Source of the DNA: a virus
Lineage: Duplodnaviria > Heunggongvirae > Uroviricota > Caudoviricetes
Strand: one strand, 5' to 3'
Virus record (IMG/VR): IMGVR_UViG_2531839662_000032
Length of the DNA stretch: 31,502 nt
Shown: positions 29,217 to 30,737 of the stretch, one piece after another
Layout of the letters: every line of letters begins with the position of its first letter
How positions within the stretch are numbered: the first letter of the stretch is position 1
Notes under the pieces: generated by a model
What the model saw: the letters and a program-made list of their open reading frames with translations, nothing else
Told to the model about the DNA's origin: nothing
Database searches by the model: none
Position numbers and translations under genes: made by a program

Positions 29217-29263
29217 TGGTGGCCCTTGCTGGACTTGAACCAGCGACCAAGCGATTATGAGTC
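29217..29263 (-). repeat. 3'-terminal 47-nt fragment of tRNA-Ile(CAU) (ileX/ileY type); displaced att half-site, not an intact tRNA
   Basis: Minus strand reads GACTCATAATCGCTTGGTCGCTGGTTCAAGTCCAGCAAGGGCCACCA (anticodon loop with CAT, T-arm, acceptor, CCA). The 5' half of the tRNA is absent. Confidence 0.75.
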
Positions 29264-29459
29264 ATGAGGCAAGTTCGTTCTATATTGTTTTTGTTTGTTC
29301 GTAATTGCTTTATTAGTTGTTTATAATCAATGAATTATGTAATTTTCTCTGTCTCCGCTTGGTTCCATTTTTTCTTCATTGTACGATCGTTACCTGACCC
29401 ATTACCTGACCCAAAATCACGAGTTATTCTGATTGTTACTGGTTTAGAAAAGAGGTTCT

Positions 29460-30737
29460 ATGGCCGTCAATCTTACTGAAACAGCCATCCGAGCATTGAA
29501 AGCAAAAAAGACATCGTTCTATGTCTGGAGCAACAGCTCTCAACGTGGCACTGGACGACTTGGTGTCAAAGTTCAGTCTTCTGGCAGCAAGATTTTCTAT
29601 TTCCGCTATTACGTGGAAAAAGGGAAAAAAGAAAGATTCATTCAATTGGGTATATGGCCTGAGATGAAACTGGCCACAGCGAATGAACTGGCAAAAAAGT
29701 ATGGTGCCTGGCTCATTGAAGGAAAGGATCCCCAGGCAGAACTGGAACGACAACAGTTTGCAGAACAGCAGCGGATACAACTCCATCAATCACAGGGCTC
29801 ATTTGAAGCATTGATTCATGGTTATGTTAACAAAATGAAAATTGATAATAAGAGGACATGGCAGGATGTTCTGAAACGCCTTGAAAATGAATGCTATACA
29901 GTGATCCCCCGTGAAACTAAAGCTAAAGATGTGACTTCCGGACAGATTAAACATATCCTGGCCGGGATCATTCAGCGTGGTGCTGTGGTTCACTCTAACC
30001 GGATCCGTTCTTACCTGATGGCTGCATTTAACTATGGACTGAAAGCAGATAACGATCCGATGAACACAAGTGCAGGGATTACTTTTGGGCTGGAGGCAAA
30101 TCCGGTGTCAGTGATACCGAAACAGTCATCTGCTGAAAAAGTCGGTGATACCTGGCTGACACTTGAAGAGTTGCGTTTTCTAATGGAACATTTTGCTGAA
30201 GCAACCAACGTTGGATTATTGATGCAACATTTGATCCGATTCTGTATCTATACCGGAGGGCAACGTCCCTTCGAAATGATCGCCAGTCAGTGGTGTGATG
30301 TTGATTTTCAACAAAAAACGCTGCTGGTGACTGCTGATGTCTCTAAAAATAAACGAGAGCATTTGATACCGTTGACTGAATCAGCATTACAGGAATTATC
30401 CTGTGTGCAGGAGTTAACAAAAGAAAAATCCAGCCCTTACATTTTTCCACTTTCGACTAATGGTAAGCGTCCGGTTCGTACGGACAGTCTGGCTCGCGCT
30501 ATCATGTATTTCCGGGCTTTTAATCCTGACTTTAAAATTTTTACAGCACGTGACTTACGTCGGACCTGTAAAACGTTAATGGGAGAAGCTGGGATCAGTA
30601 AGGAAATCCGCGATCGTATTCAAAATCATGCGTTGAACGATGTCAGTTCAAAACATTATGATCGATACGATTATTTGCCAGAAAAACGCAGAGCACTTGA
30701 GATCTGGGAGGACCGGGTTAATAACTATCAACAGTAA
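29460..30737 (+). CDS. P4-type tyrosine integrase
   Basis: N-terminal arm-binding domain LTETAIRALKAKKTSFYVWSNSSQRGTGRLGVKVQSSGSKIFYFRY is P4-integrase-like; C-terminal catalytic region with ...TARDLRRT... and ...HYDRYDY. GAGG RBS 4 nt upstream. Sits about 200 bp from the tRNA-Ile fragment. Confidence 0.85.
   Translation: MAVNLTETAIRALKAKKTSFYVWSNSSQRGTGRLGVKVQSSGSKIFYFRYYVEKGKKERFIQLGIWPEMKLATANELAKKYGAWLIEGKDPQAELERQQFAEQQRIQLHQSQGSFEALIHGYVNKMKIDNKRTWQDVLKRLENECYTVIPRETKAKDVTSGQIKHILAGIIQRGAVVHSNRIRSYLMAAFNYGLKADNDPMNTSAGITFGLEANPVSVIPKQSSAEKVGDTWLTLEELRFLMEHFAEATNVGLLMQHLIRFCIYTGGQRPFEMIASQWCDVDFQQKTLLVTADVSKNKREHLIPLTESALQELSCVQELTKEKSSPYIFPLSTNGKRPVRTDSLARAIMYFRAFNPDFKIFTARDLRRTCKTLMGEAGISKEIRDRIQNHALNDVSSKHYDRYDYLPEKRRALEIWEDRVNNYQQ

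Follow-up and report, generated by a model that had tools for sequence, protein, structure and literature searches.

What does a truncated tRNA gene signify when it lies next to an integrase gene at the edge of a sequence? This question is raised by the last 2.3 kb of IMG/VR virus record IMGVR_UViG_2531839662_000032, a stretch of 31,502 nt listed under Caudoviricetes and here called the window, in which a 3' piece of a tRNA-Ile(CAU) gene is followed by a gene for a tyrosine integrase (int). The window proved to be Escherichia coli chromosome, with ssrA at its start (40-402). We conclude, with a probability of about 0.9, that positions 29217-31502 are the left end of an integrative island that entered the tRNA gene ileY by site-specific recombination through its own tyrosine integrase. 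The features discussed are collected in Table 1.

Table 1. Features of the window, with positions counted from its first nucleotide
Feature	Position	Strand	Basis or remark
Displaced native 3' fragment of ileY (tRNA-Ile CAU, tRNA positions 30-76, 47 nt)	29217-29263	-	alignment with K-12 and UMNF18
20-bp block GACTCATAATCGCTTGGTCG (tRNA positions 30-49, including the anticodon loop)	29244-29263	-	only exact sequence common to both island ends
Integrase-proximal attachment-site arm and int upstream region	29264-29459		island-specific; conserved upstream of int across Enterobacterales
Putative arm-type repeat, copy 1 (TTACCTGACCC)	29390-29400	+	exact
Putative arm-type repeat, copy 2 (TTACCTGACCC)	29402-29412	+	exact; 47 nt upstream of the int ATG
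Tyrosine integrase, 425 aa, P4-like Arm-DNA-bind_3 class	29460-30737	+	Pfam, NCBIfam, pairwise comparison
First cargo gene (198-aa protein, GNAT-like fold, phage-derived family of unknown function)	30906-31502	+	intact open reading frame
EcoRII-type endonuclease	631-1845		ssrA-linked mosaic
Lambdoid tail genes	within 403-21283		ssrA-linked mosaic
C4 antisense RNA	14598-14685		ssrA-linked mosaic
isrK	14710-14786		ssrA-linked mosaic
Lambda-type integrase	18774-19943		ssrA-linked mosaic
DarT/NADAR (DarTG) module	19976-21283		ssrA-linked mosaic

The junction and the empty site

In K-12, ypjC is followed by ileY (tRNA-Ile, anticodon CAU, minus strand) and then by ygaQ-glaH. Alignment with K-12 showed that the whole left flank of the window on the ypjC side and the 47 nt of the tRNA fragment (minus-strand sequence GACTCATAATCGCTTGGTCGCTGGTTCAAGTCCAGCAAGGGCCACCA) are identical, and that all similarity ends exactly at 29264. 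The fragment had been named, with its length and strand, in an earlier note made from the sequence alone, and the alignment with K-12 ileY bears it out. Of the two island ends, it lies at the one farther from the regenerated tRNA gene (attR in tRNA orientation). Neither ARAGORN nor Rfam (at the gathering threshold and at E<=1) called a tRNA here, as expected where only a fragment of the gene is present, and the sole Rfam match was a sub-threshold and irrelevant one to Plastid-ycf2. Over 19460-31502, a span that crosses the junction, the window is matched at 100% identity by three independent NCBI draft assemblies, and the junction is therefore real.

The corresponding empty site is found in the RefSeq chromosome of UMNF18, a porcine enterotoxigenic E. 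coli (ETEC), which is 100% identical to the window over 403-29263 and then continues into an intact native ileY, without an island. UMNF18 had looked like the source of the window, but with its empty ileY the window must stem from a sister genome or assembly. Either the island would have been gained or lost very recently in the lineage of UMNF18 and the window, or the assemblies differ. A 94-aa open reading frame (ORF) on the minus strand (28981-29265; RefSeq hypothetical protein WP_001347906.1) starts at the junction between island and tRNA and reads through the fragment; it is probably an annotation artefact made by the insertion.

The far end and the crossover site

One of the window-identical drafts continues for 11.3 kb after int at 99.98% identity to HNSQ2209, the closest complete genome, which itself matches the window without a difference over 29264-31502. 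There, a complete tRNA-Ile gene stands on the strand of the fragment at a distance of 58,341 bp, with ygaQ, glaH, lhgO and gabD behind it, so that the intact tRNA gene which the earlier note had expected past the end of the window, at ileX or ileY, is present by proxy. A regenerated tRNA-Ile gene likewise lies beside ygaQ in O157:H16 98-3133 (island of 33 kb), ETEC1717 (62 kb) and OkiPb01683 (about 37 kb); apart from the closest complete genome, whose island measures 58 kb, island sizes are 33-82 kb. In these four genomes, which stand proxy for that of the window, the displaced 3' tDNA fragment lies downstream of the regenerated tDNA and is oriented like it, the integrase gene lies within the interval, and the related genomes K-12 and UMNF18 have an intact ileY between the same flanks; these are the features by which Islander recognizes an island.

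The regenerated tRNA gene is a hybrid, native in its 5' part and island-type from position 50 on, with a T arm of GTTGG/CCAAC versus the native GCTGG/CCAGC and an acceptor strand of AGGGGCC versus the native AAGGGCC. An intact tRNA-Ile and an attachment-site (att) repeat at the far side, the lack of which the earlier note would have taken as refutation, are both present in related complete genomes, but the 47-nt fragment is not an att repeat over its whole length: 20 nt recur exactly at the other end, whereas the remaining 27 nt are native chromosome and differ from the island-derived tRNA half at 6-7 positions. Because the tRNA gene has native sequence before position 30 and island-type sequence after position 49, the predicted strand exchange must lie within positions 30-49, a block centred on the anticodon loop. 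About 30 genera share this homology boundary at tRNA position 30. Immediately 3' of the regenerated tRNA, the island contributes a hairpin and a T run.

Three hybrid ileY genes have a U6-G67 wobble pair (loci L003, 35670-35745; L052, 25597-25672; and L053, 41406-41481), and the acceptor 3' strand varies among genomes (...GGGGCCACCA, ...GGGGCTACCA and ...GGGGGCACCA), which suggests that selection on the hybrid copy is relaxed. In HNSQ2209, a G1-U72 pair comes in addition. Pairing of the island tRNA half is perfect at ileX (locus L055).

Tandem repeats on both sides of the core

Upstream of int, an 11-bp sequence is repeated in tandem, as the earlier note had seen; both copies of TTACCTGACCC are exact and have a 12-bp period. 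With up to one mismatch allowed, the whole window holds three matches versus 0.39 expected, a number that none of 100 shuffles reached. Five complete islands have a second exact pair, 58 nt downstream of the regenerated tRNA gene, and in the 48-kb locus of 98-3133 (L003) all four exact copies (0.43 expected) are at the two island ends. The pair on the int side is 127 nt from the fragment end, and some 85 nt separate the far-side pair from the 20-bp core.

A scan of one genome per species yielded 35 loci with integrase relatives from about 30 genera of Enterobacterales. The full-length relatives mostly share about 85% protein identity with int (range, 74-99%). Where the int 5' end is kept, as in 31 loci, nearly all have a tRNA-Ile core on the opposite strand, with about 217 nt between it and the int ATG further downstream. 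The repeat pair is exact at -71/-59, or shifted by a few nucleotides, in 29 of these 31; of the two exceptions, one has a single copy and the other one mismatch per copy. The surrounding sequence varies across genera while the pair stays nearly invariant.

The layout of a P4-type attP, with tandem arm repeats on either side of a tRNA-derived core next to int, is thus found here. Because the pair is present at both island ends, is nearly invariant across genera and is laid out as in the annotated attP of P4, we consider that the TTACCTGACCC pairs are very probably arm-type sites for the N-terminal domain of Int. The guess of an arm-type site made in the earlier note therefore holds up well, with the same pair at the far end in five genomes and exact copies in nearly all of the genera. 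The pair on the int side may also autoregulate int. In most genera, a third, inverted copy (GGGTCAGGTAA) stands between the tandem pair and the int ATG (alignment columns ~225-250); in the E. coli version this copy is lost and the stretch replaced.

The integrase

The int ORF starts 196 nt from the tRNA fragment, close to the 200 bp estimated before. Its product matches Arm-DNA-bind_3 (PF13356; 56.1 bits, E 4e-15, cut-off 27 bits) and Phage_integrase (PF00589; 41.4 bits, E 2e-10, cut-off 27.1 bits); the central Phage_int_M domain (PF22022) scores 23.8 bits, under its cut-off of 27, and NCBIfam PRK09692 (NF007246) 77 bits, far under its cut-off of 434. Identity is 21% to P4 Int (E 2e-15), 24% to K-12 IntA (E 9e-25) and at most 38% to the phage integrases of a phage collection. 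Int is thus a distant member of the P4-like class and no orthologue of IntA or P4 Int: the label "P4-type" given earlier suits its domain architecture and att layout but not its degree of sequence identity. Residues R269, R367, H390 and Y400 align with the catalytic residues of IntA and P4 Int and are candidate catalytic residues.

Proposed integration and its alternatives

We propose that attP, just upstream of int, would carry a diverged tRNA-Ile(CAU) 3' half with a terminator-like hairpin behind it. Strand exchange, at presumed cleavage positions within tRNA positions 30-49, would join the chromosomal 5' part of ileY to the 3' half of the island at the far end, giving a complete hybrid gene, and would leave the native 47-nt 3' part behind, facing the integrase. 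The N-terminal arm-binding domain of Int would bind the two TTACCTGACCC pairs to form a recombination complex, as in P4 and lambda, and the product of an AlpA-family gene in the island is a likely excision factor.

Several observations weigh against this picture. The window covers only the first 2.2 kb of the island, and the far end was read from genomes identical to it over the shared part. A scan of 29150-29520 for promoters and terminators returned nothing, and no sigma-70-like promoter upstream of int. In strain PEC422, the island is broken by a rearrangement mediated by an insertion sequence (IS). The box II histidine is an arginine (R364) in the window's Int and in all its relatives, a replacement that is probably tolerated, since the whole family has it. 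Finally, int has a premature stop codon (Q426*; TAA at 30735-30737 where the family has CAA), by which 13 conserved residues are lost; the family is 438 aa long, and its tail (...NNVVNLFGRR) is conserved in about 30 genera. The activity of lambda Int is modulated by its extreme C terminus, and because the lost tail is conserved, the truncated copy may be impaired. An integrase reduced to a pseudogene had been put forward earlier as grounds for giving up the island reading, and the nonsense mutation touches on this in part.

The loss of the tail lends some weight to the idea that the window's copy, although integrated at ileY, has become a fixed and decaying remnant that can no longer move by itself, owing to the nonsense mutation and IS elements. 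The closest full island, that of HNSQ2209, is riddled with copies of IS1, IS3, IS5 and IS21 and with many pseudogenes, and the acceptor-stem changes of the hybrid tRNA in some genomes point the same way. However, the truncation falls 26 residues past the presumed catalytic Tyr400 and outside the stretch that aligns with IntA and P4 Int; the same 425-aa allele, indexed as the exact protein in 165 blocks of an assembly collection, adjoins both ileY and ileX flanks; and the empty site of UMNF18, behind an identical 29-kb left flank, fits a recent gain or loss. We therefore regard immobility of this copy as a serious possibility, though one that we doubt somewhat more than we believe it. A second question is whether the TTACCTGACCC pair is an operator of int only, bound by a regulator other than Int and without a role in recombination. 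Its place 47-70 nt upstream of the int ATG and the third inverted copy in most genera do resemble an operator, but the opposite end of the island has an identical pair, which follows the last island gene and adjoins the tRNA half, a place without an int promoter when the island is integrated, and in P4 repeats placed on both sides in the same way are annotated as arm repeats of attP. An operator-only role is thus improbable, and operator and arm-site roles are in any case compatible with each other.

The tRNA fragment could also be debris of an IS-mediated deletion or rearrangement, with the adjoining integrase unrelated to it: IS-mediated loss of ileY has been reported for E. coli W and B (PMC3032704), and the region is IS-rich in some strains. 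Yet the junction is free of IS elements, about 30 genera have the break at one and the same tRNA position and invariably at about 217 nt from this integrase, and a matching regenerated tRNA gene lies at the far end. This account is already contradicted, and we give it hardly any credence compared with integration by Int.

Distribution and target choice

Among 5,426 complete E. coli genomes, int with its upstream arm is present in 449 (about 8%) and the far-end junction in 445. The island family uses both tRNA-Ile(CAU) genes: T309.Ta3 has a 96%-identical version integrated in ileX, between nfeF and mug-rpoD, and in draft assemblies the exact window allele lies beside the nfeF/nfeR (yqjH/yqjI) flank of ileX, with a fragment that carries the ileX-specific base. 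The complete genome CP100013.1 has the exact allele as well; HNSQ2209 was used for the annotated comparison. For this common E. coli island family, our analysis establishes exactly where the boundary lies and how the att sites are built (core interval and arm sites), and explains by island insertion why ileY is a hybrid gene in carriers. The family moves sizeable cargo among strains, including type II secretion with SslE, cyclic oligonucleotide-based antiphage signaling (CBASS), restriction-modification, adhesins and a large toxin. If they prove active, att and int could be used as a tool for integration specifically into tRNA-Ile genes; beyond annotation, the importance of the results is slight.

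Individual genomes show further arrangements. In PEC422 (L001, 27176-42903), an IS3 copy interrupts the island, with yqeI-yqeH-yqeG...aas attached in inverted order, a layout that would imply a rearrangement of roughly 200 kb; the same strain has a true P4-like satellite elsewhere, at ssrA. In ETEC1749, about 490 kb separate the two ends of the island, which are on opposite strands. A draft assembly (L008, 2251-9560) holds a second P4-like element in tandem at ileX, with a 421-aa integrase and a DUF927/Toprim primase; the tRNA fragment forms a border common to both elements, and int of this second element is in the usual orientation. Large chromosomal inversions were considered for ETEC1717 and PEC422, since genes of type II secretion or of the E. 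coli type III secretion system 2 (ETT2) region come after the island start. For ETEC1717 the idea was rejected, as these genes are cargo in a contiguous 62-kb island that ends at ileY, whereas PEC422 does look rearranged at the IS3 copy.

Comparison with known elements

Satellite P4, which integrates in leuX, resembles the island in having a tyrosine integrase with an N-terminal Arm-DNA-bind_3 domain, an attP immediately upstream of int, and, according to its GenBank annotation, tandem arm repeats of 12-bp period on both sides of the core; P4 also has an inverted copy at the start of int, as does this integrase family in most genera. The arm motif is different (TGGGGGCA in P4, TTACCTGACCC here), and so is the core, which is 20 bp in P4, while here the target is tRNA-Ile(CAU) and homology begins in the anticodon stem. 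In P4 and CP4-57, int reads away from an intact tRNA gene just upstream, whereas here the tRNA-derived core is reversed. Since the core points away from int, int comes to lie beside the displaced fragment, and the end with the toxin-antitoxin and DUF4942 genes abuts the regenerated tRNA gene. This reversal is a variation in layout and no new mechanism. None of the P4 genes for the alpha primase, sid, psu, delta and the cI-epsilon module is annotated in the full islands examined, and the element is no P4 satellite.

CP4-57 (K-12, IntA/AlpA, at ssrA) and related CP4-type islands resemble the element in gene content. They have the same integrase domain set, at 24% identity, and share an AlpA-family gene, YagK/YfjJ, a GTPase, Ag43/Cah, antirestriction, RadC, DUF987, a YeeU/CbtA-type toxin-antitoxin and a DUF4942 end module. 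The difference is that int of CP4-57 adjoins an intact ssrA and reads in the same direction, whereas here it adjoins the displaced fragment. Both ileX and ileY have been named as integration sites in E. coli, in the case of modules of the locus of adhesion and autoaggregation (LAA) at ileX and of an "ileY-associated phage" in avian pathogenic E. coli (APEC) O78 (PMC5539235, PMC7545054, PMC4313913), and the LAA modules have Ag43-type cargo in common with the island. In the literature on ileX and ileY islands, these papers included, we found passing mentions only; neither this integrase nor its att sites were described, which, given incomplete coverage, is weak evidence.

Islands of the class recognized by Islander have a regenerated target gene and a displaced 3' fragment in the same orientation, with the integrase inside and homology from the anticodon region to the 3' end (PMC4383910), and anticodon-centred tDNA sites are common among them (PMC4383910; bioRxiv 10.1101/2020.11.02.365908). 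The island described here does not differ in principle from such anticodon-centred islands and is an ordinary member of this class of tRNA-integrated elements.

Cargo and the slot after int

In Escherichia, the island starts with int, the 198-aa ORF, a convergent 534-aa ORF, the AlpA-family gene (about 5 kb into the island, with an AlpA domain match), a 248-aa ORF, a small helix-turn-helix protein and two YagK/YfjJ genes, in this order. The islands of ETEC1717, HNSQ2209 and 98-3133 all have a GTPase, antirestriction, RadC and YeeU/CbtA-type toxin-antitoxin genes and end, on the far side, with a DUF4942 gene; the remaining cargo differs. ETEC1717 carries type II CBASS, a type II secretion system with SslE, asrABC and Cah; HNSQ2209 has the same secretion system along with a dynamin-like protein, an RdcB-family protein, a patatin-like phospholipase and type I restriction-modification genes; and 98-3133 encodes a 2,978-aa TcdA/TcdB-like glycosyltransferase. 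In ETEC1717 and HNSQ2209 (L012, L051), the beta-type type II secretion cluster with sslE is complete and lies, together with a truncated glcA-like permease gene and flanked by IS elements, inside the ileY island; it looks like chromosomal DNA captured by the island.

The earlier note had suggested that defence cargo might be found, and had singled out the ORF that follows int. Defence genes are indeed present in island variants, as in the case of the CBASS genes of ETEC1717, and next to int in other genera, but the 198-aa ORF and the next six island proteins have no defence-model match (PADLOC 2.0, E<=0.01). For the 534-aa ORF (L003, 5142-6746, minus strand), which lies just past the window end, searches gave no relative in Pfam, NCBIfam, PADLOC, PHROGs, PDB sequences or phage genomes; E. 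albertii has a 61%-identical copy (L016). The idea that the GNAT-like and 534-aa ORFs form an obligate pair is unsupported, as the former occurs alone in P1-like phages and the latter is without a phage homologue. Outside Escherichia, neither gene follows this integrase. Among the representatives scanned from other Enterobacterales (L017-L046), the slot about 100-3000 nt after int holds in most loci a Fic protein that matches PDC-S04, a PADLOC candidate family; ZorAB-like pairs occur there in L019, L032, L037 and L042, and the Septu protein PtuA in L036. With such contents the slot looks like a site for defence cargo. One may speculate that the slot just 3' of the integrase is a swappable site for anti-phage cargo, and that the 198-aa or the 534-aa ORF, or both, would have an undescribed defence function or a phage-derived counter-defence function; we consider this unlikely, if less so than an operator-only role of the repeats. 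The slot is nonetheless the only lead with some novelty in this work, and a place where new defence genes may be sought.

Setting in the window

Upstream of the ileY island, an ssrA-linked mosaic spans the window from ssrA to ypjA (21601-26310), followed by ypjB and ypjC (27093-28466), a stretch with Pfam matches to DUF5508 and DUF5507. Positions 403-21283 belong to this separate mosaic, distinct from the ileY island, with the restriction, phage tail, small RNA, integrase and DarTG genes given in Table 1.

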